64,000 nt of DNA from a virus, in IMG/VR virus record IMGVR_UViG_3300028585_000023, positions 370 to 64,369 of that record. One strand, 5' to 3'. The notes under the pieces are model-generated. The model did not search any database, was not told the DNA's origin, and was given only the letters and a program-made list of their open reading frames with translations. Shown here piece after piece: positions 2,636 through 59,391 of the stretch; within the stretch, counting starts at the first letter, position 1; each line of letters starts with the position of its first letter. A program made the translations under genes and the position numbers.

Positions 2636-3223
2636 TTAATTAGTGAGGAATGGAGCTTCATCGAAACCAACAACCTGCAATACAGAGTAAGGAACACGTT
2701 TGGTTAACCATACACCGTTTTCTGCACGGTAGAACACAATGCCAAAACGCTGCATTTTAACCGTATCAATCGCATACACGATGCCGTCCGTTTTGCGTCG
2801 AGTGGCAGACTTCCACGCCTGTTCACGATCATCGGTTAAATGGACGTATAAACGCTGCTGACGAGAGATCCCTTTACGGTCGATCGATTCCCTGTTAGAA
2901 GCCGGCGTACCGTGATAAAGGATTGCAGGCGGCGTAGCGAGCTCGTGATGCATGCCCTTCACACTGTCATGGGAATGCCCCTGCACTGCACGGATATATT
3001 GAAAAGCATCATCGAACTGATAACGACCCTTCTCATCCTCTTCAACGATCAGCTGAAGATCAACCAGTTCGCAGACACGACCTGTTGCATTGAGTTTATC
3101 AATTAGCGTCGCTACGTGTGTCCAACCATTCTCATCAAGAATGATCTCGAGCTCTTCTGGTTTGTGACGTAAAACCAGAGAAAGATAAATACTTAATTGG
3201 GTCGAGAGCTTTTTACTTAACAT
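2636..3223 (-). CDS. kptA: RNA 2'-phosphotransferase (Tpt1/KptA family)
   Basis: LSLVLRH, ENGW, KGRY, IRAVQGHS, LYHGT, RLYVHL, AENGVWLT motifs. Confidence 0.93.
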   Translation of the reverse strand: MLSKKLSTQLSIYLSLVLRHKPEELEIILDENGWTHVATLIDKLNATGRVCELVDLQLIVEEDEKGRYQFDDAFQYIRAVQGHSHDSVKGMHHELATPPAILYHGTPASNRESIDRKGISRQQRLYVHLTDDREQAWKSATRRKTDGIVYAIDTVKMQRFGIVFYRAENGVWLTKRVPYSVLQVVGFDEAPFLTN

Positions 3224-5564: not shown

Positions 5565-5584
5565 GTAATGTAGGTTTAACTTTT
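5565..5584 (-). promoter_or_regulatory. Putative phage early promoter (AAAAGTTAAAC-CTACATTAC)
   Basis: Intergenic motif found at five sites; resembles the phiKZ early TATATTAC-type element. Confidence 0.65.
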
Positions 5585-6164: not shown

Positions 6165-6878
6165 TCATGGGTTAAAAGGAAACTCTTTTGCTTTCAGAAT
6201 AGTTTCGAGGGGAGTAGGTTTTATATACGCCTCTTCCGCATCTATGATCGAGTGTTTCTCTTCGTGAACAAGCTTATTTGAGCCTATATACGTTTTAGAG
6301 AATGTCCAACGAGAAACTATACCGATGGTGCGAGCACGGCGCACCGTACTGCGTTTCAGCCAAATAGAATGTTCATCGCTTTTCATTGATAAACATAAGA
6401 GGCTTTGATCTAAATCAATGCCTGGACACACAAAGTTTCTGTGCTGGAATTTATCACGCGCTTTAGATCCGTCAAAGATAGCAGTGATCAAGGTCCAAGC
6501 ATCCCATGCCTCAATCGCTATTTCGATTCCAAGGTCACGACCAGCTTTTTCATCCGATAATAACCAATACCACGCTGCGATACCCAGCAGTTCAATACCT
6601 GGTCCGGCACCTGCTGCACTGTTCTCAACGAGTTTAAATTTTTCCTCAACAAGTTCACGCGGTAACATGCCGGTTCGATGACCGGTTCCCACGGGCCCGG
6701 ATGATAAGCACCGAGTCAGCACGATAACAAACCGATCGTCTGACGACCCGTTGTCATGTTGTTGAATTTCAATGGCATAGGGAATGTTAAATTCCTTGCC
6801 AGATTCCCGATCAAAGTTGGCATTAGCGAATTCAGCGACTTTATCCAGACGTATAACTTTGGTTGCAACAATAGACAT
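6165..6878 (-). CDS. Hypothetical protein
   Basis: Likely start MSIVATK at 6878 with GAGG SD. Confidence 0.75.
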   Translation of the reverse strand: MSIVATKVIRLDKVAEFANANFDRESGKEFNIPYAIEIQQHDNGSSDDRFVIVLTRCLSSGPVGTGHRTGMLPRELVEEKFKLVENSAAGAGPGIELLGIAAWYWLLSDEKAGRDLGIEIAIEAWDAWTLITAIFDGSKARDKFQHRNFVCPGIDLDQSLLCLSMKSDEHSIWLKRSTVRRARTIGIVSRWTFSKTYIGSNKLVHEEKHSIIDAEEAYIKPTPLETILKAKEFPFNP

Positions 6879-6967
6879 GGTATTTCCTCTTCTTTGTTTA
6901 GCCGACACTTTGTTTGGTCAGCGGGATATACAACTTCTTTATTTTGTCTACTTCTACAAATAGACAC

Positions 6968-6993
6968 AAAAAAGAAAGGGACCCGAAGGTCCC
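6968..6993 (-). terminator. Intrinsic terminator after the autotransporter gene
   Basis: GGGACC-TTCG-GGTCCC then TTTCTTTTTT. Confidence 0.88.
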
Positions 6994-7005
6994 TAACTTT
7001 ACAAC

Positions 7006-9204
7006 TTAGAAGCCGAAGCCGATACCGGCACCAGCGACAGCATCAGAATCGTTAGAGAAACCGACAGATGCCTTTACCTGTACGTTAGGACGGATGTTTG
7101 CACCCACGCCTACCGCCAGAGCAGTACGATCTTTGAACTGACCGATACCCGCACCTAAAGTCATTACCTGACCTGGGACGACCGGGATATTAGCCATCGC
7201 AGCGACTGAGGCAATGCCACTACGGTATTCTTTCTGATCGTCAGAACGGTTACGGTTCACTTCACCACGCAGATTACCAACTTGCTGATCAGTATAGCTC
7301 TTAGACTGCTGCAGGGTGCGAGCAGAAGAAGTATTGATGTTATTGTTGATGATCTGGTTGTTAGTGTTGTAGACGTCCTGGAACTGGTAGTAGTCGTTGC
7401 TCAGGTTAGAGATGTTCGTTTCATTGTTAGTGATACGCGTCTCGTGATTGTTAATCACTTTACCCTGATTGTTCACAACGGTCTGAGTCTCTTTGATGTC
7501 GGAGGTGTTCTTCGCGATATTAGACTCATTGGTGGTGATACGACCTTCATGGTTTGCGATCTGTGTAGTGTGCGTTGCAATCGTACCTTCCGCAGTAGTG
7601 ATGCGGTTGGTGTTAGACTGCGTCTGCTTCACGTTTTGTGTCAACACGTTATTAGTGTTGACCAGATCGTTACGGGTCTGCTGAATCTGCTGGGTATTGG
7701 ATGTGGTGCGGTTATCCAGATTCACGATGTCATTACCGTTTTTCTGACCGATACCCACAGCAACGTCCGCGGTGTTCTGCGCATTGATTGCTGTGTTCTT
7801 CGCATCCTGGCCGATGGCAACACCTGCGTTAGCAGTCTGCTGCGCATTATAGGCATCATTAATACCCTTCTGACCCAGACCGACTGCAACATCAGCAGTG
7901 TTCTGTGCGTTCACTGCTTTGTTGTAGCCTTCGTTCGCAACGTTACCAACGTTAACGATGTCGTTAGTGTTTTTGTCAACCTGCGACTGAACACCGTCTA
8001 CACGGTTATTGATGTTGGTACGATCTTTGGTCAGCTGATCATTGGTTTCACGCAGGCCACCTTCAACACCGTCTAAACGCACGGCATTGTTTTGTGAACG
8101 CGCATCCACCGCATTCAGATGATCACCCTGATCACGCAGTGTACCTTCGGCGGTATCCAGACGTGTTTCGGTGCGCCCGATACGCTCACCCGTTTCACTG
8201 AACTGTTGCTGTACCTGGTTGTTGACACCGGTCTGAGTTGCAATCGCACCGTCTACCTTGGTGTTCAGGTTACCCAGGTTGGTATTGGTTGTAGCCAGAC
8301 CAGTCTTCAGACCGCTGATATCTTTGCTGTTTTGTGCAGTTTTGCCTTCAACAGAAGTCAGACGACCATCGACAGATTTGTTCACACCCGCCTGTGCTTT
8401 GGTAGTTGCATCTACCTTCGCGCCCAGCGCATCAACTTTCAGATTTGCTACAGTACCCAGAACCACGCCAGCCGTACCCGTTGCTTGCGCAACATCAACA
8501 CGGTTACCCAGCGCTTTGCTATCTGCTTGTGCATTAGCAATCGCCGAATCCAGACGGGTGTTCAGAGCTTTGTCGCCAGCATCGATTTTGTCGTTCAACT
8601 GACCAGCAACTTTCACACCGGTGGCAGCCAGGTCATTGACCTTGCCATCGAGTGCATTGACTTTACCATCAACTGCCCCGATCGCCGCTGTCCCTGCGGC
8701 AGACAATGCGTCGACTTTGCTGTCCAGTGCGTTGGTGGCGCTAGCCGTGGTAGTGGACAGATTATCGATACGACCGCTCAATGCATCATCCGCGCTAACA
8801 CGCGCATCGATTTCACCGTTGAGTTTCGCACCCAGGTTGTTGATTGCAGCCGTGTTACCATAAGAGGTAGTCAGCGCGTTGTTAGCAGTAGCACGACCTT
8901 CGACAGCGATGTCAAATGCCTGGCCCGCTTTGATGTTGGTGTTGTTCAGTGCCGTGTTGGTTTTACCCAGCTCGCCATTGAAGTAACTGACCGACGTATC
9001 GATTTTGGTGTTAAGATTGTTCAGGCCGGTGTTCAACTGACCGATCTGCTGCGTGTGCAGCGTGGTGGTATTTTTCAGTGACGTGACGTCAGCTGTATTT
9101 TTGTTGACAGTGGTGTTTAAGATCCCCAGATCAAGATCGATCAGAGAAGCATTGGCCCCGGCGGTAAACAAAATAACAGAAATAGCAAGCGACTTTAATT
9201 TCAT
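7006..9204 (-). CDS. Trimeric autotransporter adhesin (YadA/Eib-like): Sec signal, long coiled-coil stalk, C-terminal YadA anchor
   Basis: Start MKLKSLAISVILFTAGANA at 9204; C-terminal GIASVAAMANIP...LGAGIGQF...ALAVGVG...VKASVGF...AGAGIGFGF ending in Phe; Asn-rich heptads such as NHETRITNNE. Confidence 0.88.
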   Translation of the reverse strand: MKLKSLAISVILFTAGANASLIDLDLGILNTTVNKNTADVTSLKNTTTLHTQQIGQLNTGLNNLNTKIDTSVSYFNGELGKTNTALNNTNIKAGQAFDIAVEGRATANNALTTSYGNTAAINNLGAKLNGEIDARVSADDALSGRIDNLSTTTASATNALDSKVDALSAAGTAAIGAVDGKVNALDGKVNDLAATGVKVAGQLNDKIDAGDKALNTRLDSAIANAQADSKALGNRVDVAQATGTAGVVLGTVANLKVDALGAKVDATTKAQAGVNKSVDGRLTSVEGKTAQNSKDISGLKTGLATTNTNLGNLNTKVDGAIATQTGVNNQVQQQFSETGERIGRTETRLDTAEGTLRDQGDHLNAVDARSQNNAVRLDGVEGGLRETNDQLTKDRTNINNRVDGVQSQVDKNTNDIVNVGNVANEGYNKAVNAQNTADVAVGLGQKGINDAYNAQQTANAGVAIGQDAKNTAINAQNTADVAVGIGQKNGNDIVNLDNRTTSNTQQIQQTRNDLVNTNNVLTQNVKQTQSNTNRITTAEGTIATHTTQIANHEGRITTNESNIAKNTSDIKETQTVVNNQGKVINNHETRITNNETNISNLSNDYYQFQDVYNTNNQIINNNINTSSARTLQQSKSYTDQQVGNLRGEVNRNRSDDQKEYRSGIASVAAMANIPVVPGQVMTLGAGIGQFKDRTALAVGVGANIRPNVQVKASVGFSNDSDAVAGAGIGFGF

Positions 9205-9288
9205 GGTCTTAATTCCTGAGAAGTATTGTTGGATATTGATTGACTGCACATGTGTAGTGATTCGATATTCCTTAGATTCACCACACCG

Positions 9289-9312
9289 GTAATATAGAAG
9301 TGAGAAATATTT
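9289..9312 (-). promoter_or_regulatory. Putative phage early promoter (CTATATTAC) upstream of the autotransporter
   Basis: Contains exact TATATTAC, about 85 nt before the ATG. Confidence 0.7.
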
Positions 9313-9328
9313 GATTCTGAATTAAGTC

Positions 9329-9354
9329 GGCATAAAGGGCCCCCGAAGGGACCC
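9329..9354 (-). terminator. Hairpin (UUCG loop) + TTTATGCC terminator
   Basis: GGGTCCC-TTCG-GGGGCCC then TTTATGCC. Confidence 0.82.
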
Positions 9355-9359
9355 GTGTG

Positions 9360-11261
9360 TTATTTTGCTTCTTTCTTGAGCTCAATGTAACGCAGTTCAG
9401 ACTTCGACCACTGTGCTTGGTTAACCTGAACCCGCACTTGCAGGAAGTCTCCTACAATCTTACCCTTCAGGATCAGGTCACCATCATTGGTTGCACCGAT
9501 CCCCGCCTTCTGTCCGATTGACCACTGTTCACTGATATCAGACACATTGGCCAGTGCCGCGACTTCAGCGTCAGCAACCGGAGCAACATCAGCACGGAAG
9601 AAGAACGACACCCCTTTCTCGAAGTGAGTGCTACCCGTTGCGGTAATGATAGGAATGACGTTACGGGTATATCCTTTCAACTGCACATAAAGAACAAAGC
9701 GTGAACCATCTTTGACGATCTTTGCAGCCAGAACAGGCGAGGAACCCGATGGCATGAATGTACCGCCAATTGCACCGTCTTTCTTGTACTGGACACGAAT
9801 CAGGGTATTACCGCCACCTTGACGTGTATCGTCGATATCGTTCAGTACCGCATTGGCAGAGAGGTAGTTGCCAGTGCCTACTAAATTGATATCGATCTGA
9901 TCACCTTCAGCCGGTGAGAAGAACTTACCAACACGGAACCATTTGGCCGTTGCGGCTGAGTTGTTCAGTTTGTTACGAGACATCAACGCACCGAACTCAA
10001 GGGAGCCGTCGGTGTAGATACCGTAGTTCTGGATATCAATACGACCACGTTCCCATTCAGACAGCCATTCTTGCAGATCTGGATCTGGTGAGTAATCGAT
10101 ACCCGAGCCTGACTGGAGATTACGCGCTGTCTCAACCAAACGAGAGTAGGAGGCTTTCAGTTTGGTTTTGCAATCTTCCATGGAGAAGCCAGTGATGACC
10201 CACTGACCATTGGAGATATCACCTGGGTTATCGGAGTGTTCAATCCAACCATTATAAATGAAGGACTGAGTACAACGTGGTAAGTTGAAGACTTTACCTA
10301 AACGACTACCCTGTACGTTGAAGTTAGAAAGTTCAACAGCCGTGGTGTGATCCCATACACCTTTCGCTTGACCGGACCAGGTTGCAGCGATGATATCGCC
10401 GGTACAATCAGATGCGTACCACTGATTCACGCGAGTATCGAGTGTGTCCAACAGACTGATACAAGTACCACCAATCTTTTCGAAGCGTACACAGCTCAGG
10501 TTAAAGAACTGACCACCTGGGATGCTGTTGTTGAAGAAGCCTTTCTTAATTGGTTTATCAACAGTGGAAGTACTGCGGACAATTAAGTTAGCCAATTCTA
10601 CTTTACGTGCTACCAGATCAATCATGAAGTTTTCATCAGTGTTCGACACGAGGATTGTCGAACTGTGATAACCAAAGTTGGTAGCATTGCCCGTAATACG
10701 AATGATGTTAAGTTCTTTGTTCGGTTTGAACTGCGATACAAAGAATGTACCCGCCGGGAAACGAATACCAACACCTTGCATCTTAGATACAGACCAGTTG
10801 TACATATTGGTCATTGCAGGGACGGCATCGGTCTTAGCATCTGGCACCGCTCCCCAATGGGTTACGTTCAGATCGGCCGGATCATTAATTACACGTTCCC
10901 AGTAGAAGCCATTGCCTGCAGCAATTGTACCGCCATCATCAGCACCTTTGCTTAAGTGACCAATAAAGTCACCGCCACCATAACAGGTACCGGTATTCCA
11001 GCCACGCAGAGAAATACGTGCACCTTCCATACGCGGTTTGGTTTTGCGTAATTCATCAAAGGATTGGATTTGCCCAATTAAGCACAGCGCGTCATTGGAC
11101 TTCAGCACATCAACACTCAGGAGATTGGTGAGCTGTTCAGTTAAATCACTTAACGGGAAATAAGACATTTCACCGCCGGTAATAGTGACAACCCGCGTAT
11201 CGGGTTTCGCGCTTGCAAGCAATCGTTGCAGGGGCGATAATACTTCGGCTGTAGCTGCCAT
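9360..11261 (-). CDS. amsF: AmsF/WceF-like exopolysaccharide-associated beta-helix protein (tailspike-like fold)
   Basis: GQIQSFDELR, DDGGTIA, GIRFPAGTFF, LDTLD, WDHTTAVELSNFN, LPRCTQS.I.NGWIEHS..PGDISNGQW, GIGATNDGDL match Erwinia AmsF as recalled; no twin-arginine signal. Confidence 0.82.
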   Translation of the reverse strand: MAATAEVLSPLQRLLASAKPDTRVVTITGGEMSYFPLSDLTEQLTNLLSVDVLKSNDALCLIGQIQSFDELRKTKPRMEGARISLRGWNTGTCYGGGDFIGHLSKGADDGGTIAAGNGFYWERVINDPADLNVTHWGAVPDAKTDAVPAMTNMYNWSVSKMQGVGIRFPAGTFFVSQFKPNKELNIIRITGNATNFGYHSSTILVSNTDENFMIDLVARKVELANLIVRSTSTVDKPIKKGFFNNSIPGGQFFNLSCVRFEKIGGTCISLLDTLDTRVNQWYASDCTGDIIAATWSGQAKGVWDHTTAVELSNFNVQGSRLGKVFNLPRCTQSFIYNGWIEHSDNPGDISNGQWVITGFSMEDCKTKLKASYSRLVETARNLQSGSGIDYSPDPDLQEWLSEWERGRIDIQNYGIYTDGSLEFGALMSRNKLNNSAATAKWFRVGKFFSPAEGDQIDINLVGTGNYLSANAVLNDIDDTRQGGGNTLIRVQYKKDGAIGGTFMPSGSSPVLAAKIVKDGSRFVLYVQLKGYTRNVIPIITATGSTHFEKGVSFFFRADVAPVADAEVAALANVSDISEQWSIGQKAGIGATNDGDLILKGKIVGDFLQVRVQVNQAQWSKSELRYIELKKEAK

Positions 11262-13042: not shown

Positions 13043-13068
13043 GGCATAAAAGCCGGCACAAAGCCGGC
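13043..13068 (-). terminator. Hairpin + TTTTATGCC terminator
   Basis: GCCGGC/GCCGGC stem then TTTTATGCC. Confidence 0.75.
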
Positions 13069-17727: not shown

Positions 17728-17748
17728 GTCATGTAGGTTTGAGATTTT
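17728..17748 (-). promoter_or_regulatory. Putative early promoter variant (AAAATCTCAAAC-CTACATGAC)
   Basis: One mismatch to CTACATTAC, similar upstream AAAA...AAAC. Confidence 0.55.
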
Positions 17749-17774: not shown

Positions 17775-17802
17775 GGCATAAAAGGAGGACCGAAGTCCTC
17801 CT
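17775..17802 (-). terminator. Hairpin (UUCG loop) + TTTTATGCC terminator
   Basis: AGGAGGAC-TTCG-GTCCTCCT then TTTATGCC. Confidence 0.87.
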
Positions 17803-22442: not shown

Positions 22443-22468
22443 GGCATAAAGGGAGGCCGAAGCCCCCC
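22443..22468 (-). terminator. Hairpin (UUCG loop) + TTTATGCC terminator
   Basis: GGGGGGC-TTCG-GCCTCCC then TTTATGCC. Confidence 0.82.
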
Positions 22469-23017: not shown

Positions 23018-23047
23018 GGCATAAAGGGGTAGGATATCCTACCCCTT
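23018..23047 (-). terminator. Hairpin + TATGCC terminator
   Basis: Perfect 10-bp stem AAGGGGTAGG-ATAT-CCTACCCCTT then TATGCC. Confidence 0.85.
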
Positions 23048-25200: not shown

Positions 25201-25226
25201 GGCATAAGGGAGGGTTTCCCCTCCCC
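25201..25226 (-). terminator. Hairpin + TTATGCC terminator
   Basis: GGGGAGGG-GAAA-CCCTCCC then TTATGCC. Confidence 0.8.
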
Positions 25227-28098: not shown

Positions 28099-28126
28099 GG
28101 CATAAAAGGAGGGCCAAAGCCCTCCT
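28099..28126 (-). terminator. Hairpin + TTTTATGCC terminator closing the RNA-ligase operon
   Basis: AGGAGGGC-TTTG-GCCCTCCT then TTTATGCC. Confidence 0.85.
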
Positions 28127-28454: not shown

Positions 28455-29693
28455 TTAACCCTTCACGCAAAGAATCTGTTTCAATATATACTTGATTTTC
28501 ACCAAGTCATCCTGGGAACGCATGACATCGTCAATTGACTTATACGCTTTTGGCGTTTCATCAATCACACCGGCATCTTTACGACACTCAACACCCGCCG
28601 TGTCGCGAATATGATCTTCGACACTGAACTTATTGTTTGCGGCAGCGCGCGACATCAACCGACCAGCACCATGCGAACATGAACAGAAGCTCTCTTCATT
28701 ACCCAAACCTTCGACAATGAATGACTTAGCACCCATGCTACCAGGGATAATCGCCAGATCACCTACACGGGCACGAACTGCGCCTTTACGGGTTACCAGT
28801 ACATTGGCATTAAAGTGGTTTTCCATTGCCACGTAGTTGTGATGGCAGTTAACCGCAATGGTGCTTTCCGTAAACGGTTTAGCAATAGTTGTGTGTAGTG
28901 CCTTAAGTGTTGCACTCAGCATGATTGCGCGATTGACTGCAGCGAAGTCCTGCGCCCAGCTAACTGCTTCCAGGTAGTCGTGGTAATACTGAGAGCCCTC
29001 TGGAAGATAAGCCAGATCCTGATCCACTAGGTGAATGAAGAAGCGCGCCATCTCTTCTTTGGCTTTCTCAATAAAGTACTTACCAATACTGTTACCAATG
29101 CCGCGCGAGCCAGAGTGTAACATTACCCACACCCGTTGCTCCTCATCAAGACAGATTTCAACGAAATGGTTACCGCTACCCAGTGTGCCGGCATGGCGAG
29201 CAAAGCGCGAACTGGCTTTCAGTAACTTAGGATGCTTACCAGTGATTGTCTTCAAGCGATCCTGAAGTGCAATCAACGCGTCCTTATGCACCTGGTCGAG
29301 ATTCATACTGAATTCGGTCCCCCAGGCACCACGATCGTTAGCACCACCGTTATCAGTACGGCCATGCGGAATACCTGCTTCAATACGAGAACGCAGCGGA
29401 GCGAGGTTATCAGGCAGATCAGCTGCAACCAACGAGGTCTGCTGAGCGATCATCCCACAACCGATATCCACACCGACTGCAGCGGGGATAATCGCACCTT
29501 TGGTTGCAATGACAGAGCCGATAGTTGCACCCATCCCCCAGTGGACATCCGGCATGACGGCCAGGTGTTTATAAATGAATGGCAGAGTTGCCAAATTCTT
29601 TAACTGGACTTCAGCACGTTCTTCGACAGGAACAAACTTTGTCCACATCTTGATCGGCACTTGCTGTCCTCCGAGTTCGATAATATTTGACAT
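28455..29693 (-). CDS. rtcB: RtcB RNA ligase (3'-phosphate or cyclic phosphate to 5'-OH)
   Basis: MPDVH, VGVDIGCG, GTLGSGNHFVE, HSGSRG, HHNY, RKGA, PGSMG, SCSHGAGR, DETPKAYK. Confidence 0.97.
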   Translation of the reverse strand: MSNIIELGGQQVPIKMWTKFVPVEERAEVQLKNLATLPFIYKHLAVMPDVHWGMGATIGSVIATKGAIIPAAVGVDIGCGMIAQQTSLVAADLPDNLAPLRSRIEAGIPHGRTDNGGANDRGAWGTEFSMNLDQVHKDALIALQDRLKTITGKHPKLLKASSRFARHAGTLGSGNHFVEICLDEEQRVWVMLHSGSRGIGNSIGKYFIEKAKEEMARFFIHLVDQDLAYLPEGSQYYHDYLEAVSWAQDFAAVNRAIMLSATLKALHTTIAKPFTESTIAVNCHHNYVAMENHFNANVLVTRKGAVRARVGDLAIIPGSMGAKSFIVEGLGNEESFCSCSHGAGRLMSRAAANNKFSVEDHIRDTAGVECRKDAGVIDETPKAYKSIDDVMRSQDDLVKIKYILKQILCVKG

Positions 29694-29702
29694 TACTAAT
29701 CC

Positions 29703-31034
29703 TTAGTCTTCGCTTAAGAGATATTTGTTACTGATTACCTTGAACGAGAAGTCCCGTGTCAACGATTTGTAAACCACGCCTTCACGATTGGGCTTACCGG
29801 AATAGAAGCGTTTACCGTCTGCCTTGGCCAACACTTCCTTAATAGTAGCCGGCAACGTAGTGACTTCTTCCAGAACAGGAACGTACTTCAGTCCCAGACG
29901 TGTGCATACGTTGCGTGCCTGCTCAGGTGACAGGGCCATGGTACCGTTGACGTATACACGGTAGACATTGAAGGAGACTTTATCTACACCTTCGTAGTTT
30001 CCCTGGATACCCGGTCCAAAGAGCTCGCCCTGAACGGTATACTCGCAACGGTCCATTACTGACAGCGCACCGAGCTTAGTCAGAATGCCATTCTCGTGAG
30101 CATAGCGGAAGAAGTTATCATCCAACGCCGAGATAACACGCTCTACACGAGGCAGACCCACATTGATGATGTCACGCAGTTCATTGCTATTAAAGAAATC
30201 ACGTAACCACGGGATTGGCGCTGAAGTGTATTCAGGCCAGGTAATACGTCGCCAACTAAATGCACGACGGTTACGTAGCATGAGTCCACCTACCCAACGA
30301 CGTACTGTTTGCCATGGGGTAAAGACAATATCGTCTTGACGGATTTCACAGTTACGTGAGCACACGCCGGTAATCACTTCGCCGTCGTCAATGAACGAAT
30401 AAACGGTCATTGATTCACCATCCAGTTTCACCGTGACTTCGAACTCTTCACCGGACTCTACGGCGCGCTGATACTGAGACGAGGAGTTCTGCACCCGGTT
30501 CTCTTCTGACTTACGCAGAAACGCCGGGAATGGCAACGGACTGATTTCAGGCCCACGGATACGCAATGCCAGGCGATGGTACCAACTGTATGACGGTTCA
30601 ACAGCAGTGGTGTTCTTGGAGTCTGATTTCTCATACTTCAATACACCCAGCACCATTGTCAGATCGTCGCCTTCCACACAGTTGGTTACCTTGACAACCT
30701 GCTGTGGAATAGGGATTAACAGGCCCTGTGACAGCTCTTTACGCAGCTTGATGGTTTTAATGCGAGCATACGTCTGATCGCCAAAAGACTTCAGTCCTTC
30801 TTTGCGCTCCTCTAAGAAGGCAAACTCAGGAATGCTGGTTGGGACCAAGGAATCGATCTCGCAGTACAGCGCCAGATCACCCTTGTTAAATTCACCCAGC
30901 TTGATACAGACTTGCCAGCCGCCAATAATGGCTAATGCCAGACGGTCAGCATTCGGATGTGGGATAACATCATCGATGGTCACTACACGTGCCATCTGGC
31001 GAAAGGTCTCTACAACAGCCTTTGCATCACTCAT
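29703..31034 (-). CDS. ATP-dependent RNA ligase, DRB0094/Rnl5 family
   Basis: N-terminal OB-like HPNADRL...GGWQV...EIDS...KLRKELSQGL; motif I KLDG; III QGELFGPGIQGN; IV REGVVYK; V FKVISNKYLL. Confidence 0.9.
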   Translation of the reverse strand: MSDAKAVVETFRQMARVVTIDDVIPHPNADRLALAIIGGWQVCIKLGEFNKGDLALYCEIDSLVPTSIPEFAFLEERKEGLKSFGDQTYARIKTIKLRKELSQGLLIPIPQQVVKVTNCVEGDDLTMVLGVLKYEKSDSKNTTAVEPSYSWYHRLALRIRGPEISPLPFPAFLRKSEENRVQNSSSQYQRAVESGEEFEVTVKLDGESMTVYSFIDDGEVITGVCSRNCEIRQDDIVFTPWQTVRRWVGGLMLRNRRAFSWRRITWPEYTSAPIPWLRDFFNSNELRDIINVGLPRVERVISALDDNFFRYAHENGILTKLGALSVMDRCEYTVQGELFGPGIQGNYEGVDKVSFNVYRVYVNGTMALSPEQARNVCTRLGLKYVPVLEEVTTLPATIKEVLAKADGKRFYSGKPNREGVVYKSLTRDFSFKVISNKYLLSED

Positions 31035-31837
31035 TTAATTTTTCCGTATATCTTCTTGTGAATAATCTTTAACATTTCATTGTCAGTAGATAATTTAGTT
31101 CTCCTGACAACAACCCAAAAACAACCTTCAAACAGTTTATTTAAATTAGTTTCCGGTGTTGTGACAACATCCGTTATTGAATACATACGCATCCGTGTGA
31201 CACCAACAGATAACATCGCTTTATGGAGTGTCTCAAATTCATCAGCAGTTATACCTACCTTGTCGGTCCAGTAAGTTATCTTGCTGTGCACACATCCTAA
31301 AACTTCGGCAATTTCACTCAGAGGTGTATAATTACCTCTGAACATTAATCGCCGAGTATCTCTCTTGTTACGTCCCTGTTGTTTAGTTGTCGCCCAAACA
31401 CAGTTACCAGGTTCGTAATTACCATCTGGATCAATACGTTCGATGCTGTGTTTAGGTGTTGGTCTTTTACCCATATCACGAATAAAAGCAGCATAAGAGT
31501 TTTTCCATTCGTCGGACACAATTATTCCACGTCCACCATATATGGCGTAATCTGTAGCCGAAGGGATATAACATCTTGCTTTCATGCCATTCCATACTTT
31601 AAATTCAGGGTCTTTGCAGCCGCCATGCTTGACTATTTTATCCCTCAGTTTCTCCAGGCGATAACAACCGCAAGATATTTGATGACCACCGACTATTGTT
31701 TTTACGACTCTGGAGATGACGTTGCCACAATCACAACGCCATTTCCACATGGTACGTCCTTCTTTGTTTTTACCATCGGGAGATACCGCTGTTAGTCGTC
31801 CGTACTTATTACCTACTTCTATTTCAATCTTTTTCAT
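31031..31837 (-). CDS. Free-standing HNH endonuclease (homing-endonuclease-like)
   Basis: GNKYGRLT, WKWRCDCGN, SCGC, WNGMKARC, YGGRGI, SIERIDPDGNYEPGNCVWAT..QQGRNKR. Confidence 0.88.
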   Translation of the reverse strand: MKKIEIEVGNKYGRLTAVSPDGKNKEGRTMWKWRCDCGNVISRVVKTIVGGHQISCGCYRLEKLRDKIVKHGGCKDPEFKVWNGMKARCYIPSATDYAIYGGRGIIVSDEWKNSYAAFIRDMGKRPTPKHSIERIDPDGNYEPGNCVWATTKQQGRNKRDTRRLMFRGNYTPLSEIAEVLGCVHSKITYWTDKVGITADEFETLHKAMLSVGVTRMRMYSITDVVTTPETNLNKLFEGCFWVVVRRTKLSTDNEMLKIIHKKIYGKIK

Positions 31838-36100: not shown

Positions 36101-36128
36101 GGCATAAGAGAGCCCCGAAGGACTCTCT
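36101..36128 (-). terminator. Hairpin (UUCG loop) + TTATGCC terminator
   Basis: AGAGAGTCC-TTCG-GGGCTCTCT then TATGCC. Confidence 0.82.
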
Positions 36129-36456: not shown

Positions 36457-36478
36457 GTAATGTAGGCTTAAAGAATTC
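36457..36478 (-). promoter_or_regulatory. Putative early promoter (CTACATTAC)
   Basis: Same motif as at 5565 and 44880. Confidence 0.65.
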
Positions 36479-44879: not shown

Positions 44880-44902
44880 GTAATGTAGGAATAAAATGAT
44901 TT
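44880..44902 (-). promoter_or_regulatory. Putative early promoter (AAATCATTTTATTC-CTACATTAC)
   Basis: Same motif family. Confidence 0.65.
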
Positions 44903-50450: not shown

Positions 50451-53400
50451 TTAGTTACGCCAAGCGAAGTTACCTGCGCCTGATGGCACCCCAGTGGAGA
50501 TTGGGATGGCCGAACCAATGCGATTCGCTGATAACTCAAAAGTCTCTACACGCACTTTCTTGTTAACGCTGATCGATTGGATTTGAGTGCTGTTGGTAAC
50601 AATACTGCCGATATACATTAGAGTCATTGACGGGGCCTGTGCCTGGGTCGTGATGAGATACGACACTTGCTCGTCAACCAGCTGCACGTACAGATAGAAC
50701 GTCGTGTTTGCTGGATTGGCTTGGATGCTACGCAGATCGATGTTACCGGCCGGAAGGGTGTATTCGTTACCCGCTAAGAACACTTGGGTCGGTGCCGTAA
50801 AGTAAACGAGGTAACCCTGCTCAACCTGTTGCGCAGCCAGGATAAACTTCCCACGAGAAGTCCAGTTAATGAACTCTTGATAGGTCGTTGCCATGGAATC
50901 CATGACCATGACTGCAGTGGCGTTATTACGGTTGGTCGCATAATCCATTACACAAATACCAGATCCCGGTACAACTAATGGCGTTGGGTTATCAGCCGTT
51001 GGGTAATACCCGTGGTTAAACCGTTTCACCGTACTGTCTTCGATGGTCCCAGTACCTGCACGAATTGCCGCATACCACACATAGCTGTAAATACCGCCAT
51101 ACGTTTGATGGTTAGGTGGGCAACCAATTCCTAAGAGGTAATCACCTGCCGCAGTCTTGTAGATATTTAAACCACCTTGACCGGCGAGCTCCATGGTAAC
51201 GCCCGATGGTTGCTGTTCTTCAATGCGTCTGTCGATTACACGTTTGATGGTGTAACCTGTTACACTGCCTGAACGAGATCCAGTGTAGTTAAGTTCAACT
51301 AACGCAAATGCAGCACGGTAAGCAAGACCATCATCACGCAGGACTTCACCGTTACACACCATGATCAATGGCACCGCCGTATCTTGCGGAACATAGATCA
51401 GCCCCATGTTCAGTGTTGGGGCTTTACCGAGCACTTGGGTAATGGCCGCTTTCGCCAACGCGTTCATCTCTGCTTTATCAAAACTGAACGAACCCGTCAT
51501 GTTCAGATTAGCATCAATGTCAGTGCAACCAACCCAACTGGTTGACTTATCGTTATCTTCCCAGATTACAGAAGGTGACGAAATGATGTTACCTCCACTG
51601 TCCACTTGGGTAATTACGTGTGCAAAGCGATAACGATCGATCGCTGTCCGTGCAGCCGGGATTTCAGAACGATTGCCATTAGGCGCGAAGCCATTGATTG
51701 TACGACCATCCAGTAGTTTATACGGGAAGTTTGCATTACCTGTTATGACAACACGTTTTGTGGTGCCGTAGGTGTAATAACCGACTTCCTTATACTTCGT
51801 ACCGGTTAACAACAATCCAAATCCTCGGAGCAGCTGAGGTTTCATGAAGTTGTTGGTCAACGCACTGCCTGTTACCAATGGATCGTTAACCTGGGTAATC
51901 AACCGAGTGACCCGACTCCGCTCACGCATTGCATCGAAGCGGGAGACAAAGTTAAGGATCTGACCTTTACCGTACAACGGGTTCTCGTCTGGCTGATTAC
52001 CTGACATACGGGTTAGCAAATAACCACGGTTAGTAACAAGCGTGTTATGATGTCGGTTACCGCCCATCATATCCATGCCAGTTGCTGTCGTTGAACCTGT
52101 CTGCAAAGGTGAACTGATCGGCGCACTGTATTGGTTGCCAGAAATGGTGATTGGCCCAGGGCTATCTTCCACCACGGATGTTTTGGCAGTCGTATCGATC
52201 AAAATAGAGAAGGCAATTGGTGCTAGACCGGTCCCGCCTGCTTTGGCTTGTGAATAGGTAGTGTGGTGATAATTCACACGTACCTGATTCGGGTTGGCTG
52301 GATTCACCGCTGATTGCAAACGACGTTGGGCATTCTGTATGTTGATCGCGAACAACTGTTTATTGGTAACATAAACGTACGGGTTGTTGTTAGCGTCGGA
52401 GCTTGACCACTGCGCTGCAATCAAGACGTCAGCATTCGTAATACTGCGGCCATACACATCTTTACATGACCAATTCGTAACCGGTTCTAAAGTGACAGTA
52501 CCACCGGCCTGAATTGCCGAGATAGCCACACGCCAAACTACCAGCCTAGCTGAATCAGTACGTTCCGCATTACCGTTCGCATCTGGGGTAACCGTCACGA
52601 AATCTTCAAGTCCGCCAAAGATATAAACGTAGGTACCGACAATTGCTGCGGTCATAAAGCGGATATGGTAGTTCCCGTTAGCCATACCGGCAGCTTTATA
52701 GTAAGCGGTGTAATGTTTACTGACATCAAAGGTACCGTTAGTCAGTGAGATAAAACGATCGACACTGCTTGATCCTTTAATCGCACCCAGCAACACTTCA
52801 GAGTCATTGTTGTAGATGTCAGAACAGTATGTTCCAGCCGGAAGGTTAGGTGGCACGTATTTAAAGTTTGTACGAATTGGACTGGTGCTGTCAATGCGAT
52901 CTTCAGCAGATGGCAGATAGAAGTAATACAAACCTTCTGAGGTACCCGTTGCGCCGTAACGCAGACCCACCATGGTGCCGTCATCTTCAATGATCATCGG
53001 ACCACAAGAGTTACCTGACAACTGACCAGAACCTTCAAACGAACCTGAGATATCCGGTGGTAAAAAGGACAATGAACCGAACGCTGAAATCGGGTTAATC
53101 CCCTGGTGATGCAAAGATGAACCGAAGTCACCAAATACCTTCGACGCTAAAGCATTATATCCCGGCGGGGTGATAAACAGATTGTCATACTCGCCTTCAC
53201 CTGCTTGAGCAACTGTCGCGGTCTTAAAGTTATCCACCAGACCAAAACCAATTTGAGTCGCGTTGACTTTATGGATATTGGTGCGGTTACTCGCATGGGC
53301 GTTCAGGTTAGACTGGGCTTCGGTGACCAACATCTCAACCGTGTTGGTAAAGTTGGTCATCACCCCCGCAGCTAAGTCGTATTGCGAATAACGTGCGTTT

Positions 53401-53480
53401 TGTAATTTCCAGGTGAGTGCTTCAATCGAGGCATAAAACGAACCCCAACTACCCGGATCAACCGTCAGGTTGTCGCTCAT
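50451..53480 (-). CDS. Tail fibre/baseplate protein (phiKZ gp131-like family)
   Basis: Start MSDNLT at 53480 (AAGGAG SD); C-terminal ...YLYVQL...GSAIPISTG.P module shared with the next two genes. Confidence 0.75.
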   Translation of the reverse strand: MSDNLTVDPGSWGSFYASIEALTWKLQNARYSQYDLAAGVMTNFTNTVEMLVTEAQSNLNAHASNRTNIHKVNATQIGFGLVDNFKTATVAQAGEGEYDNLFITPPGYNALASKVFGDFGSSLHHQGINPISAFGSLSFLPPDISGSFEGSGQLSGNSCGPMIIEDDGTMVGLRYGATGTSEGLYYFYLPSAEDRIDSTSPIRTNFKYVPPNLPAGTYCSDIYNNDSEVLLGAIKGSSSVDRFISLTNGTFDVSKHYTAYYKAAGMANGNYHIRFMTAAIVGTYVYIFGGLEDFVTVTPDANGNAERTDSARLVVWRVAISAIQAGGTVTLEPVTNWSCKDVYGRSITNADVLIAAQWSSSDANNNPYVYVTNKQLFAINIQNAQRRLQSAVNPANPNQVRVNYHHTTYSQAKAGGTGLAPIAFSILIDTTAKTSVVEDSPGPITISGNQYSAPISSPLQTGSTTATGMDMMGGNRHHNTLVTNRGYLLTRMSGNQPDENPLYGKGQILNFVSRFDAMRERSRVTRLITQVNDPLVTGSALTNNFMKPQLLRGFGLLLTGTKYKEVGYYTYGTTKRVVITGNANFPYKLLDGRTINGFAPNGNRSEIPAARTAIDRYRFAHVITQVDSGGNIISSPSVIWEDNDKSTSWVGCTDIDANLNMTGSFSFDKAEMNALAKAAITQVLGKAPTLNMGLIYVPQDTAVPLIMVCNGEVLRDDGLAYRAAFALVELNYTGSRSGSVTGYTIKRVIDRRIEEQQPSGVTMELAGQGGLNIYKTAAGDYLLGIGCPPNHQTYGGIYSYVWYAAIRAGTGTIEDSTVKRFNHGYYPTADNPTPLVVPGSGICVMDYATNRNNATAVMVMDSMATTYQEFINWTSRGKFILAAQQVEQGYLVYFTAPTQVFLAGNEYTLPAGNIDLRSIQANPANTTFYLYVQLVDEQVSYLITTQAQAPSMTLMYIGSIVTNSTQIQSISVNKKVRVETFELSANRIGSAIPISTGVPSGAGNFAWRN

Positions 53481-53496
53481 GACAACTCCTTTCAAA

Positions 53497-53520
53497 ATAA
53501 AAGGAGGGGTTTCCCCCTCC
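53497..53520 (-). terminator. Intrinsic terminator between tail paralogues
   Basis: GGAGGGG-GAAA-CCCCTCC then TTTTATTTT. Confidence 0.8.
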
Positions 53521-53525
53521 CGACA

Positions 53526-56500
53526 TTACGTCTGACTCCAGTTACCCGTTTGTTGCGGCAGTCCCGTCGACACAGGAATAGATGAACCTGCTTTGATTGC
53601 AGAGATCTGATACTTATTGATCCCTGAACGCTTCGTGATGTTGATCGAGTTGATCTGTGAAGTGTTCGTTGCAACCGTCCCGATAAACATACGGGTCGTT
53701 TCAGCAGTTAATTCCGTAGCCGAAATGGTGTACTTCGCTGTTGTCGCATCCACAACCTCAATGTAAACATAATAGGTTGTGCTTGCTGGGTTAGCTTTTA
53801 TCGTACGCAGGTCAATGCTGGTAATTGGAATGGTGTATTCACGACCACCCAGGATGATTGGGATAGGTTCTGCAAAATACAGAATCCAACCTTGCTCTAC
53901 AGTTTGTGATAACAACACTGAGGTCCCGTTGCCCGGAATGGTCCATTGGCGAATCGTATCAAAGTTCTCACCTTGTGCGGCTAACACAATGGCACACGGG
54001 CCTACTGCTGATTGCGCACTTGGCGTAACCGGGACAGTATAGTTGGTGTCCGAATAAGTAACAAACAAACCTTTACCCGGAAGTGCAAAAGGGGTGTTTG
54101 ATAACAGATCGACATACGGTGAGACAAAGTACTGGTTTGACGGATTGCCTGAGATGCGTCCATTCGTCATCTTCAGATACACTAACGGCAGGTTGTTAGC
54201 AGGACCCACGGTGTATGGGCAATAGAAACCACCCATGGCAACGATGTATTCACCACCGACTTTATACGTCAGCATACCAAACGTCGTCAGGATACGAGAA
54301 ATATCCGTTGTACCGACAGACTGAGGCTTGCTGATAATATCATCGAGGTTAGCTGTCCAGCCATTTAACACACCGTCACGTGCACCGCCGTAAGACACGG
54401 TAGCGATGGCTGTGATGGTATCGGTAATGCCGTTGGCCTGCGCCGGTGTGAAGCCTACCACCTTAAGCATCAGTGACATTCCGCCATCCGTTGGGACAAA
54501 CAGTATGCAGCGATACTTAGCCGCAGTGATACCCAGCTGGTTAAGTACCCGTTGGCCTTGAGCACGCAGATAGTTCACATCGGTACTGATCGCACCTGAC
54601 GTGGTCAACGTAGGATCAATATTTGCAGGACCAGTTGGTGCATCATCAGAGATTGCGCGACAATGCGTAACAACCGACGCTCCATTGATCTCAGTGATGA
54701 TCTCACGACTAGGGCGATCCACTGTGGCTCTAACTCGATCGTTAGAAGGCTGGAAACCCTGAACATTACCGAGGCCAATCAGCTTATACTGGAAATCACC
54801 ATTACCCACGAGAGGCTGAGAAGCAAAATAAGTATTTGTTCCATCAAACGCCCAGAAGCCCAATCGGTTGTTCGGGAAGAGAATCGGACATCGCAGGTTA
54901 CCTTTCGCTTCGGATCCGTAGGAAGTACCGTCACCAATAGTGCGGAACAGGACGTTGGTGTAAGCCGCTGGATTACGCCAGTACGTATCGGCATCAACAA
55001 AGTTTGGGATCTGCTGAATATCGATGCGCATTCCGACGTTTGACGCCTGCTGACGACTGGTACAAATTGAGAAGCCTTTCTTTGTAATCAGTCGACTACC
55101 GTGGTAATCGCCGCTCAGTGCAGCAGTCCCGTCATTAACACCACGCAGTTTAAAGTAGTTGAGGTTAGAACCATTGGTTACCACCGTCATCTTCAACGTA
55201 CTGCTTGTGTCATCGACCACGGTAAACGGGTTCATGGTATCGGCAGGTCTGGCGGTCTTGGCATTAACATCAATAATAAAGCGAATGGGGAACACTGAAA
55301 TATTAGAGTTGTTACGCCCGTCGACGTTAATGGTGAAATCCACTAACATTGTCAAGGTGCCGTCACTGTTCGCCACCATCTTACCGTAACCGCCTGGCCA
55401 TGAGCGGTACTGTGCTTTGGCGTATTGATTGCCGTTATACTGCACCAGGACGTGCTGGTTAGAGCGTCCGATTACCTGATCACAGATCTGCATACTGCGG
55501 GCAGCAGTACGGACTTGACCGAGGAACGTAGTTGCCCAGCCTGTGATCTGTGTAAACGTAACCGCAGCGCCAGCGATAATATCCGCAACGTTGATATACC
55601 CCAGGTAGATCTGTGGGATCGCGTTGTAAGAGATCGCCCCGCCGGCTTCCATGGTTGTGGCAATGTTCGGGTTCTGATGAATCACGTAGATCCGCGAACC
55701 GACCATACACAACTGCGTCCACGACGGGCTGAACTCTTGTGTTGAACCATCGTCCATGGTGAAGAACGCGTTACTGATCTGGGCGCAGTTATGTTTGGTA
55801 CTATCCAGTGTGCCGTTGGTCAGGGCAATCCAGTATTTGTAATCACTGGTTGCCGGCAGAGCAGCCTTGTTGTACATGATACCGGCGATCACATCACCCT
55901 GGCAGTCAAACAAACGTGCCGGGATATATGCCTGGTCTAAACCAGATGGCGTATATTTGTTGTTGGTGTTGGTGACCGTAAAGGTATTGATGTTACGGTG
56001 AATGTTAGTGACATAATCGTAATACAACGCGATCGATTCGCCGTTCGTACCAGGACGAAGACGAATATACGTACCGTCATTCTCAACCACCTGAGCGTAA
56101 TGGTCATGCGCATCTACCATCGACGCCCCTTCAAACGAACCGATGATACCCGGTTGTAAGAAGTTCAGGTTACCAAACCGTGTAACAGGCAGGTTGCCCT
56201 GATGTACTAAGTTTGAAGAATACCCTTGCAGTGCGTTGGCAAGAATGTCCTGCGCACCTTTTACCGTCAGACGTAGATCAGGTCGCAAACCTTCAACAGC
56301 TTGAATGCTATCAGCGGTCGCCAGGTTCTGTAGTTTTGCGATACCAAAGGTTTTAGCGGTATCGGCATGTGGATTGCCGTCTTCAGTGGAATGCGTCAGG
56401 ATTTCACCGTTGATGCTTGCCTGTAGATCTTTGATCTGGTTGAGTACAACGGCAACCTTGTTGGTGAACCCTTCGTAGTTCAGGTTCTCGCCACGCAAGA

Positions 56501-57017
56501 TAAGACCATCAGCCACCCAGGTGCTGAACGCGATGCGGTCTTCCCAGCCATAGGTATCCATGAACATGTCATGGGTGTGATACGACGGCGGGTATGTCGC
56601 AGGACGGTTATTGATATTATCCCACAGGACATCACGCTCATCATTGATGATTGCCCACAACAAATTCTCAAGCGTAATTGAATTGAAAGTAAACAATCCA
56701 CCTACAACTTGATACTCGACAAAGATATCCCCAACGACCGTTTCATTGAGAATCTTGATAAAACAAGTACATGAACGCCCAGTCTTCTTAGAGGCTTCTG
56801 GGAAGTGATGTACAGGTTGGAAATCCACCCAAGGTTCAAGGTAGCTCCCATTTGGTAAACGTACCTTTACTGAGTCAGAAAAGAACGGACCTTCCAATGC
56901 GGCAATGATCTTGTTCTTAGGACCGGGGGTTAAGGTATGTCGTTCACCCCCAATCAAGTTCTGCGGATCTTTACCCGTAACATCAAATTTATATTTCGTA
57001 AGAATCGGGGTATTCAT
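53526..57017 (-). CDS. Tail fibre/baseplate protein (phiKZ gp131-like family)
   Basis: Start MNTPIL at 57017 (AGGAG SD); shares N- and C-terminal modules with neighbours. Confidence 0.78.
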   Translation of the reverse strand: MNTPILTKYKFDVTGKDPQNLIGGERHTLTPGPKNKIIAALEGPFFSDSVKVRLPNGSYLEPWVDFQPVHHFPEASKKTGRSCTCFIKILNETVVGDIFVEYQVVGGLFTFNSITLENLLWAIINDERDVLWDNINNRPATYPPSYHTHDMFMDTYGWEDRIAFSTWVADGLILRGENLNYEGFTNKVAVVLNQIKDLQASINGEILTHSTEDGNPHADTAKTFGIAKLQNLATADSIQAVEGLRPDLRLTVKGAQDILANALQGYSSNLVHQGNLPVTRFGNLNFLQPGIIGSFEGASMVDAHDHYAQVVENDGTYIRLRPGTNGESIALYYDYVTNIHRNINTFTVTNTNNKYTPSGLDQAYIPARLFDCQGDVIAGIMYNKAALPATSDYKYWIALTNGTLDSTKHNCAQISNAFFTMDDGSTQEFSPSWTQLCMVGSRIYVIHQNPNIATTMEAGGAISYNAIPQIYLGYINVADIIAGAAVTFTQITGWATTFLGQVRTAARSMQICDQVIGRSNQHVLVQYNGNQYAKAQYRSWPGGYGKMVANSDGTLTMLVDFTINVDGRNNSNISVFPIRFIIDVNAKTARPADTMNPFTVVDDTSSTLKMTVVTNGSNLNYFKLRGVNDGTAALSGDYHGSRLITKKGFSICTSRQQASNVGMRIDIQQIPNFVDADTYWRNPAAYTNVLFRTIGDGTSYGSEAKGNLRCPILFPNNRLGFWAFDGTNTYFASQPLVGNGDFQYKLIGLGNVQGFQPSNDRVRATVDRPSREIITEINGASVVTHCRAISDDAPTGPANIDPTLTTSGAISTDVNYLRAQGQRVLNQLGITAAKYRCILFVPTDGGMSLMLKVVGFTPAQANGITDTITAIATVSYGGARDGVLNGWTANLDDIISKPQSVGTTDISRILTTFGMLTYKVGGEYIVAMGGFYCPYTVGPANNLPLVYLKMTNGRISGNPSNQYFVSPYVDLLSNTPFALPGKGLFVTYSDTNYTVPVTPSAQSAVGPCAIVLAAQGENFDTIRQWTIPGNGTSVLLSQTVEQGWILYFAEPIPIILGGREYTIPITSIDLRTIKANPASTTYYVYIEVVDATTAKYTISATELTAETTRMFIGTVATNTSQINSINITKRSGINKYQISAIKAGSSIPVSTGLPQQTGNWSQT

Positions 57018-57069
57018 TGGATATCTCCTGGGATATCGGAAAGTGGGTGAGGGCATCACCCACTCACCC

Positions 57070-58332: not shown

Positions 58333-58333
58333 A

Positions 58334-59308: not shown

Positions 59309-59391
59309 GTCGGTCTCCAAGTAATTTTATAGCTTAGGTGTAATTAGTAATGAACACATATGATTGATTTTTCAAACTAAGGGCGGAGCGC

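Follow-up and report, generated by a model that had tools for sequence, protein, structure and literature searches.

A headless trimeric-autotransporter-type adhesin gene inserted behind an early-promoter-like motif in an Agricanvirus-like jumbo phage

YadA-type adhesins are mostly treated as virulence factors of bacteria or as prophage cargo. Characterized trimeric autotransporter adhesins (TAAs) such as YadA, Saa, and Eib bring about autoagglutination and adhesion, and the Eib adhesins have head and neck domains and an immunoglobulin-binding stalk. Here, we analyzed a gene for a protein of this type in a stretch of viral DNA of 64,000 nucleotides (hereafter, the window; positions 370 to 64,369 of IMG/VR record IMGVR_UViG_3300028585_000023, a viral record of 66,461 b with an estimated completeness of 24%). 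We find that the gene is real, that it encodes a complete protein of the TAA type (type Vc) composed of a signal peptide, a headless coiled-coil stalk, and a YadA anchor, and that it is under purifying selection. Comparison with related genomes indicates that it belongs to a cassette of ~2.3 kb, consisting of the gene and its own terminator, that was inserted between the genes for an exopolysaccharide (EPS) depolymerase and a homologue of gp80.

Several described systems resemble the window adhesin in part. Bacterial TAAs (YadA, Hia, and AtaA) have in common with it the anchor fold and Pfam family, the Sec signal, a coiled-coil stalk with core asparagines, and the terminal aromatic residue, but the window adhesin is without head, neck, or named passenger domain and is encoded by a lytic phage. 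The Eib adhesins of E. coli prophages (P-EibA/C/D) are likewise phage-borne TAAs, with an anchor that is 34% identical; however, their carriers are temperate, they are expressed from the lysogen, and they are not close relatives (E 5e-5 to 9e-5). In virulent phages, YadA anchors are found in phiEco32 (gp119), the Salmonella phages FSL SP-058/-076, and the N4-like phages S6 and TR2, away from the tail genes according to the relevant passages of PMC3728262 and PMC10654107; these proteins are shorter (265–320 aa), are carried by small podoviruses, and can be aligned with the window adhesin in the anchor only (35–43% identity). The Erwinia phages Yoloswag (gp261), pEa_SNUABM_5 (gp273), Bue1, and phiEa2809 encode proteins annotated 'putative/STEC autoagglutinating adhesin', which fall into the same clade as the window adhesin (support 95/98) and have its signal peptide and its layout of stalk plus YadA anchor. 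No Pfam head match was obtained in the members scanned, small non-structural genes surround them, and in pEa_SNUABM_5 (48.5% identical over 85% of the length) and Bue1 a terminator hairpin follows the adhesin gene. They differ in that their carriers are unrelated (Yoloswagvirus, Rivsvirus, and Ackermannviridae versus Agricanvirus-like) as well as in insertion site, promoter, and the length and sequence of the distal stalk, the members having 431–767 aa. Finally, the β-barrels of huge phages and Lom of phage lambda are, like the window adhesin, signal-peptide-bearing, phage-encoded outer-membrane proteins, and such proteins are proposed to remodel the surface of the infected cell in sections of a preprint on huge phages (10.64898/2026.10.24.761521). 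The census in that preprint differs in that barrels of 6–22 strands per chain were counted; its main text contains none of the words autotransporter, YadA, and adhesin, and its 'surface display' class might, but need not, cover proteins of this kind. Because of this strand range, the census as laid out in that text would have missed the class with four strands per chain.

When read from a GTG, the open reading frame (ORF) comprises 747 codons (Table 1). In a sister phage, represented by a viral contig of 287,406 b in which depolymerase, adhesin, and gp80 homologue have the same order (83% identical), a 1-nt indel 5' of a conserved ATG throws the GTG extension out of frame; because the frame of the extension is broken in this way, we take the product to be the 732-aa protein that starts at this ATG and that is preceded by AGGA in both phages. 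At its N-terminus, MKLKSLAISVILFTAGANA followed by SL conforms to the Sec signal that an earlier note on this DNA, made from the sequence alone, had claimed, and a signal-like hydrophobic N-terminal segment is present in 28 of 30 family members, 26 of which have K or R before it. In the subsequent ~650 residues, N, T, and A are abundant whereas Cys and Trp are absent. Their hydrophobicity has peaks at periods of 3.55/3.5 and 6.95 residues, i.e. of the heptad type, and an AlphaFold2 (AF2) monomer model, generated from a 29-sequence alignment and numbered according to the 747-residue reading, has helices at residues 52–120, 133–255, 263–360, 392–638, and 645–686, amounting to ~635 helical residues within 52–686. 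Ten [ILVA]xxNxxx[ILVA] sites are present, of which two are in the signal peptide and the anchor linker, and three of the stalk sites have the NT form; all three prolines are in the C-terminal anchor region (689, 692, and 721). Neither Pfam YadA_head nor YadA_stalk matched the adhesin at E<=0.01, and an NCBIfam search of the protein gave just sub-threshold coiled-coil look-alikes, e.g. SMC and Rad50; in TAAs, a head or another passenger domain that binds a ligand is common but not obligatory. The GC content over 6–10 kb (0.468–0.498) compares with 0.441–0.501 elsewhere in the window, and the AT skew of -0.09 is as expected because the coding is rich in Asn and Thr. The coiled-coil stalk of ~650 aa, the Asn-containing heptads, and the absence of a recognizable YadA head, all of which the earlier note had described, are borne out.

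The C-terminus, described in the same note as a full YadA β-barrel anchor ending in Phe, passes the profile check as well: Pfam YadA_anchor (PF03895) matches residues 696–747 with an E-value of 3e-10 and 40.4 bits (cut-off 22.7), and after the helix at 645–686 the AF2 model has four strands (696–705, 708–720, 723–732, and 737–745). In Foldseek searches against the PDB, the top five matches are all TAA translocators (Hia 3emo/2gr7/2gr8, AtaA 9vnj, and YadA 2lme) with E-values of 9e-7 to 6e-5 and a probability of 1.0; the next match has an E-value of 0.095. The protein ends in GFGF and thus has the terminal aromatic residue of an outer-membrane insertion signal, and the last residue is F, W, or Y in 28 of 30 family members. 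By homology, the protein would form a homotrimer with one 12-strand barrel.

The repeats in the stalk required a different description from the one first given, i.e. a 14-residue repeat seen twice. The motif NAQNTADVAVG.GQ does occur twice, but the two occurrences are copies 1 and 3 of three units of 21 residues (three heptads each), and all three units are helical in the AF2 model. The 21-residue spacing together with the helical model rules out that the units are 14-residue β-roll repeats of the head type. On the basis of the model, we regard the 21-residue units as stalk modules. The sister-phage adhesin has one additional 21-residue unit immediately downstream of the three repeats; overall, the two proteins are identical at 663 of 758 positions (87%) and their alignment has a 21-residue in-register indel. 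If fully extended, the modeled stalk would form a fiber of ~94 nm (635 helical residues x 0.148 nm).

Instead of being displayed on the outer membrane, such a protein might be a virion fiber or a tail-associated protein in which the YadA-like C-terminus serves as a trimerization module. In agreement with this possibility, the PHROG families matched by the adhesin are filed under 'tail' and RefSeq relatives are named 'tail protein'; in cyanophages, 'YadA domain-containing structural proteins' were detected in the virion by liquid chromatography–mass spectrometry, as reported in an excerpt of PMC9146016, and YadA-domain proteins were assumed to be tail-fiber parts (PMC6224464). Residues 514–595 of the stalk are also similar to the trimeric coiled coil in gp26, the tail-needle protein of P22 (4lin, E 3.9e-7), and this similarity may reflect a heptad motif common to both or the exchange of a module between fibers and adhesins. 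However, the 'tail' labels come without a cited experiment, and E-values of coiled coils are weak evidence. A cleavable Sec-type signal and a C-terminal aromatic residue are kept across the family while virions of tailed phages assemble in the cytoplasm, the fold matches are confined to membrane translocator domains, and the adhesin-less sister genera form virions without the adhesin. Moreover, the adhesin gene lies outside the structural module in the window as well as in Yoloswag, pEa_SNUABM_5, Bue1, and phiEco32. A tail fiber or tail needle would be devoid of an export signal and encoded in the tail module; the adhesin has such a signal and is encoded elsewhere, and a stretch of coiled coil is its sole likeness to these proteins. 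We consider a function in the virion improbable and continue with the adhesin as an outer-membrane protein.

The closest proteins to the window adhesin are phage proteins, with that of Yoloswag being 45% identical over 95% of the length, followed by proteins on contigs of 72–350 kb and then by those of Bue1 and the Xanthomonas jumbo phage XbC2; among bacterial YadA-like proteins, identity does not exceed 27–29%. The Pfam anchor is found in 27 of 29 aligned members, and head or stalk families in two of the 29. In a tree computed from the C-terminal 170 residues (32 rows; P0008 and P0013, which are without the anchor, were left out), the clade introduced above comprises the proteins of the window, the sister phage, Yoloswag, pEa_SNUABM_5, and Bue1 together with three further proteins. 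All named members of the clade are from Erwinia phages, and these belong to four unrelated taxa besides the lineage of the window. Pattern-seeded scans confirmed no relative in species-representative bacterial genomes, although seeding with short patterns makes this weak evidence.

According to the earlier note, such adhesins are known as morons of temperate phages. This does not hold for the family as a whole. At E<=1e-3, 100 of 50,697 phage records match the anchor region, and among the 60 records listed most are of virulent types such as Kuravirus (phiEco32 group), N4-like Salmonella phages, T4-like phages (of Yersinia, Proteus, and Salmonella), Ackermannviridae, and several jumbo phages; in BFVD, 20 viral structures match at E<=1e-3. 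Many of the anchor-carrying phage records are already annotated "adhesin" or "YadA-like". In print, Moreno Switt et al. 2013 (PMC3728262) describe, in the part dealing with these genes, yadA homologues in virulent Salmonella phages, phiEco32, My1, and cyanophages and state that the phage homologues are not near tail genes, and a survey of N4-like phages from 2023 (PMC10654107) gives, in the portion concerned, 19 genomes with the anchor, Erwinia phage S6 among them, and classes it as a "virulence AMG". Because ~100 phage records carry the anchor and such genes have been published since 2013, the presence of adhesins of the YadA-anchor kind in lytic phages is already known and is not very novel.

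The assignment of the carrier to the lytic jumbo phages, also made in the earlier note, agrees with the gene content of the window. A PHROG scan of 62 proteins identified an Agricanvirus-like, phiKZ-related gene set with an RNA polymerase beta fragment, RtcB, RNA ligase, thymidylate synthase, SbcC, and virion-protein paralogues; none of the 62 was found to be an integrase. Comparison with phage records at the nucleotide level gave 18 matches, every one of them a phage of Erwinia amylovora. The window represents part of the genome of a lytic jumbo phage that is Agricanvirus-like (phiKZ-type) and has Erwinia-type hosts. The RNA 2'-phosphotransferase, RtcB ligase, and RNA ligase genes make up an RNA-repair set with an HNH endonuclease adjacent, and the four paralogous virion-structural genes have N- and C-terminal modules in common.

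Both flanks of the adhesin gene are matched in 10 of the 18 Erwinia phage records; in all ten, the flanks are 2,277 nt closer to each other and the adhesin is absent. In the adhesin-less phage Deimos-Minion, gp80 is separated by a gap of 174 nt from gp79, the EPS depolymerase gene. The junction alignment gives the ancestral intergenic region as depolymerase stop, hairpin, CCTATATTACC, 5' untranslated region (5'UTR), and gp80; the order in the window is hairpin, TCTATATTACC, adhesin gene with its terminator, and then the remainder of the gp80 5'UTR. From this alignment with Deimos-Minion, it follows that the cassette landed just behind a pre-existing promoter-like element. Like a moron, an extra transcription unit of the Hendrix type, the gene is inserted between ancestrally adjacent genes, but it does not come with both a promoter and a terminator of its own. 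Its neighbors are the depolymerase gene and small genes of unassigned function outside the virion structural module. The adhesin gene and a strong terminator now lie between the gp80 homologue and its ancestral promoter, and no replacement promoter motif was seen in the 97-nt gap in front of the homologue.

The earlier note had assigned the gene an early-type promoter of its own and terminators on both sides. The exact octamer TATATTAC was discarded as a promoter word on account of chance-level counts (one in the window versus 1.77 expected; with one mismatch, 26 versus 49 expected) and replaced by the context-derived motif CTAYATKAC. The latter occurs five times in the window, always intergenic and always on the coding strand, compared with a mononucleotide-shuffle mean of 2.3 and an intergenic share of the window of 8.6% on a crude map of 80 ORFs. 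Four of the five copies are preceded by an A/T-rich stretch and followed within a few bases by GTG, and three, including that of the adhesin gene, come soon after a hairpin. Counts in forward/reverse orientation are 23/2 in the complete 287-kb genome of the sister phage (reversed-pattern control, 9/5) and 17/1 in Deimos-Minion (control, 7/2). We conclude that CTAYATKAC represents a recurrent, strand-biased, intergenic motif class. The four further copies in the window each precede a gene without assigned function. The motif is similar to promoters predicted for phiKZ (TATATTAC), EL (..AAACCTACATTAT), and 201phi2-1 (..TATATTAC...GTG) in Table 2 of PMC7058600, and passages of a review (PMC7598289) state that every jumbo phage that encodes an RNA polymerase has AT-rich motifs of ~10 nt in front of its early operons and that these motifs turned out to be early promoters wherever tested. 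A scan for sigma-70 promoters gave eight sites versus 10.2 expected, none of them 5' of the adhesin gene on the coding strand. What remains of the original claim is that the motif, by analogy, is of the phiKZ-type early class; because the same hairpin and CTATATTAC precede gp80 in the adhesin-less Deimos-Minion, the gene has a borrowed promoter and not one of its own. By the same analogy, we think it fairly probable that the adhesin gene is transcribed from this borrowed early-type promoter.

The claim of terminators on both sides stands for the downstream side, where the hairpin is strong and, together with the subsequent T-run, identical in the sister phage. The upstream hairpin is the terminator of the depolymerase gene and has a weak T tract; it is conserved in the sister phage, and Deimos-Minion also has a hairpin at the same position. 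The TTATGCC that abuts this hairpin occurs 14 times in the window, 13 times on the coding strand and eight times in intergenic regions (shuffle mean, eight), and recurs in combination with a hairpin (Table 1). With TATG being the late-promoter core of phiKZ according to a section of PMC7598289, the combination of hairpin and TTATGCC(G) may, by analogy, be a terminator fused to a late promoter.

Table 1 Features of the adhesin locus and other elements mentioned in the text (positions in the window)
Feature	Position	Strand	Remarks
ORF, GTG-started reading	7006..9249	minus	747 open codons
Adhesin coding sequence, ATG start at 9204	7006..9204	minus	732 aa + stop
Shine-Dalgarno AGGA	9214..9217	minus	9 nt 5' of ATG
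Sec-type signal peptide MKLKSLAISVILFTAGANA	9148..9204	minus	predicted cleavage after ANA, mature protein from SL
Headless coiled-coil stalk	7192..9147	minus	~635 helical residues (model)
Three 21-residue (3-heptad) repeats containing NAQNTADVAVG.GQ	7723..7911	minus	starts at residues 447, 468, 489 (747-residue numbering)
Stalk segment resembling P22 gp26	7465..7710	minus	residues 514–595
YadA-type anchor ending ...AGAGIGFGF	7009..7164	minus	four β-strands; Pfam match
Anchor segment in comparison with sister phage	7009..7200	minus	dS 1.63, highest; stalk dS 0.3–0.7
Inserted cassette, approximate extent versus Agricanvirus genomes	6959..9280	minus	flank spacing and junction alignment
Intrinsic terminator AGGGACCTTCGGGTCCCT + T-run	6977..6994	minus	-16.5 kcal/mol, z -4.8
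CTATATTAC, phiKZ-type early-promoter-like motif	9289..9297	minus	~85 nt 5' of ATG
Exact octamer TATATTAC	9289..9296	minus	
TTATGCC abutting hairpin	9329..9335	minus	contains TATG; recurrent hairpin + TTATGCC(G) class
GC-rich hairpin after EPS-depolymerase stop	9337..9354	minus	-14.9 kcal/mol, z -2.0; weak T tract
EPS-depolymerase homologue (upstream gene)	9360..11261	minus	PHROG 4250, 1e-223; conserved in Agricanvirus genomes
gp80 homologue	6165..6878	minus	PHROG 11154; 237 aa from conserved ATG at 6878
Further CTAYATKAC copies	5565..5573, 17728..17736, 36457..36465, 44880..44888	minus	28–48 nt 5' of a gene
Hairpin + TTATGCC(G)	9329..9354, 13043..13049, 17775..17781, 22443..22449, 23018..23024, 25201..25207, 28099..28105, 36101..36107, 61412..61418	minus	
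RNA-repair set	2636..3223 and 28455..31837	minus	RNA 2'-phosphotransferase, RtcB ligase, RNA ligase
Four paralogous virion-structural genes	50451..59320	minus	PHROG 3573 and 2163; 1014, 1177, 420, 328 aa

Comparison of the window with the sister phage gave a ratio of nonsynonymous to synonymous substitution rates (dN/dS) of 0.091 for the adhesin (dS 0.60), 0.123 for the depolymerase (dS 0.95; 82% identical), and 0.175 for the gp80 homologue (dS 2.0). Per segment of the adhesin, dN/dS is 0.02–0.25, and along residues 20–600 of the 732-aa protein it is 0.02–0.13, making the stalk the most constrained part. These data bear on the possibility that the gene is a passenger acquired by chance, which is unexpressed in lytic infection or without benefit to the phage. 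Its absence from all ten Agricanvirus records in which both flanks are matched shows that such phages can dispense with it, as expected of a passenger. However, it is intact in two phages at a dS of 0.60 with a dN/dS below that of both neighbors, its regulatory DNA is 91–92% identical between the two phages while the flanking coding DNA is 77–83% identical, the indel in the adhesin is an exact unit of three heptads, and the clade recurs in phages of one host that belong to the four unrelated named taxa besides the lineage of the window. A mere passenger is, in our view, very improbable. The anchor segment has the highest dS of the protein. In the tree based on the C-terminal 170 residues, the window adhesin groups with pEa_SNUABM_5, Bue1, and two further proteins (support 97/91) and not with the sister phage; this grouping suggests allele exchange in that segment, which would make the anchor segment a mosaic.

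How might such a protein act during infection? The earlier note had put forward cell aggregation, masking of receptors, and anchoring on plant surfaces, and we treat these as hypothetical functions. We infer expression timing, export, trimerization, fiber length, and function from the features described above and propose the following sequence of events. Transcription would start from the pre-existing phage promoter, which is of the class used by virion RNA polymerases for early genes; the mRNA would be translated in the cytoplasm, and the Sec signal would direct the protein to the periplasm. There, three C-terminal four-strand units would assemble into the 12-strand barrel, which the β-barrel assembly machinery (BAM) of the host would insert into the outer membrane, with the terminal Phe helping as a signal, and the headless coiled-coil passenger would be threaded out as a fiber of ~90 nm on the still-living infected cell. 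Through self-association of the stalk or through adhesion, infected cells would become sticky and would be kept in host microcolonies or matrix until they burst; receptors would be shielded sterically as a by-product or as an alternative advantage. Different parts of this proposal deserve different degrees of confidence. Sec export, a trimeric 12-strand barrel, insertion by BAM, and a fiber of ~94 nm are very probable. Stickiness or aggregation of infected cells is, by analogy, the most likely effect, but we suggest it tentatively; we favor it because characterized family members behave in this way and because the exposed stalk is under strong constraint. Because this constraint extends over the whole exposed stalk, specific contacts fit better than a mere spacer. 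For the proposal in its entirety, i.e. a functional phage-borne TAA acquired as a cassette behind an early-type promoter and displayed as a host-surface fiber that makes infected cells sticky, we regard the arguments as almost, but not quite, evenly balanced.

With the same display on the outer membrane, the selected function could instead be shielding, in that a brush of fibers or the binding of receptors blocks competing or superinfecting phages and, after lysis, spares progeny from being lost on debris. Early envelope proteins of lytic phages classically serve exclusion, as exemplified by Llp of T5. Because phages that compete for one host would benefit from shielding, this function fits with a clade that is common to Erwinia phages of four unrelated named taxa besides the lineage of the window, and it is also consistent with the missing head domain and the widely variable length of the distal stalk (431–767 aa in the family). 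For phage outer-membrane proteins in general, receptor interference is proposed in parts of the preprint on huge phages (10.64898/2026.10.24.761521), where lambda Lom is cited as blocking LamB. On the other hand, a fiber of 732 aa is a costly receptor mask, strong purifying selection at exposed stalk positions is not needed for a steric shield, a shielding phage would need to avoid hindering its own progeny, and we found no exclusion data in the literature for any phage adhesin of the YadA-anchor type. Shielding as the selected function is therefore possible but rather unlikely, and stickiness of infected cells remains the effect that we favor.

A number of points weigh against the proposal of an early-expressed, functional surface adhesin. 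At the level of the protein, the confidence of the AF2 monomer model is moderate (mean pLDDT 67, pTM 0.25), the signal peptide was called by eye and with a crude hydrophobicity script rather than with a trained predictor, and the adhesin is without a head or other binding domain recognizable by Pfam. At the level of expression, the octamer TATATTAC is at chance also in Deimos-Minion (six versus five for the reversed-pattern control), the motif in front of the adhesin gene is 'early' solely by reasoned analogy to phiKZ-like early-promoter motifs, and the TATG-containing motif also present 5' of the gene may, by analogy, indicate expression at more than one stage. Of 14 entries listed for sequencing runs matching this DNA, one contains the stretch in full and may be its source, and no RNA run is among them. 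Lastly, our search of the open-access literature did not turn up any experimental work on a phage adhesin of this kind.

The recurrence of these adhesins under purifying selection in strictly lytic phages suggests remodeling of the outer surface of a cell that is killed within hours. The locus also provides a clean natural experiment, with close relatives that have and that lack the gene, an insertion right behind a phage promoter, and clade members that are carried by cultivated Erwinia phages. If the fiber causes aggregation or exclusion, this would bear on phage competition, on the spread of phages in biofilms, and on the choice of phages for biocontrol cocktails against fire blight. More speculatively, and on a reading that we consider rather unlikely, lytic Erwinia phages of four unrelated taxa and of the lineage of the window may maintain and exchange a phage-specific clade of headless fibers as an early-promoter-driven coat of ~90 nm that manipulates the social behavior or the receptor landscape of the host. 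If so, this coat would bind infected cells into aggregates of the host or keep out rival phages and, given that the anchor is present in ~100 phage records, it would represent a general, overlooked strategy of virulent phages.

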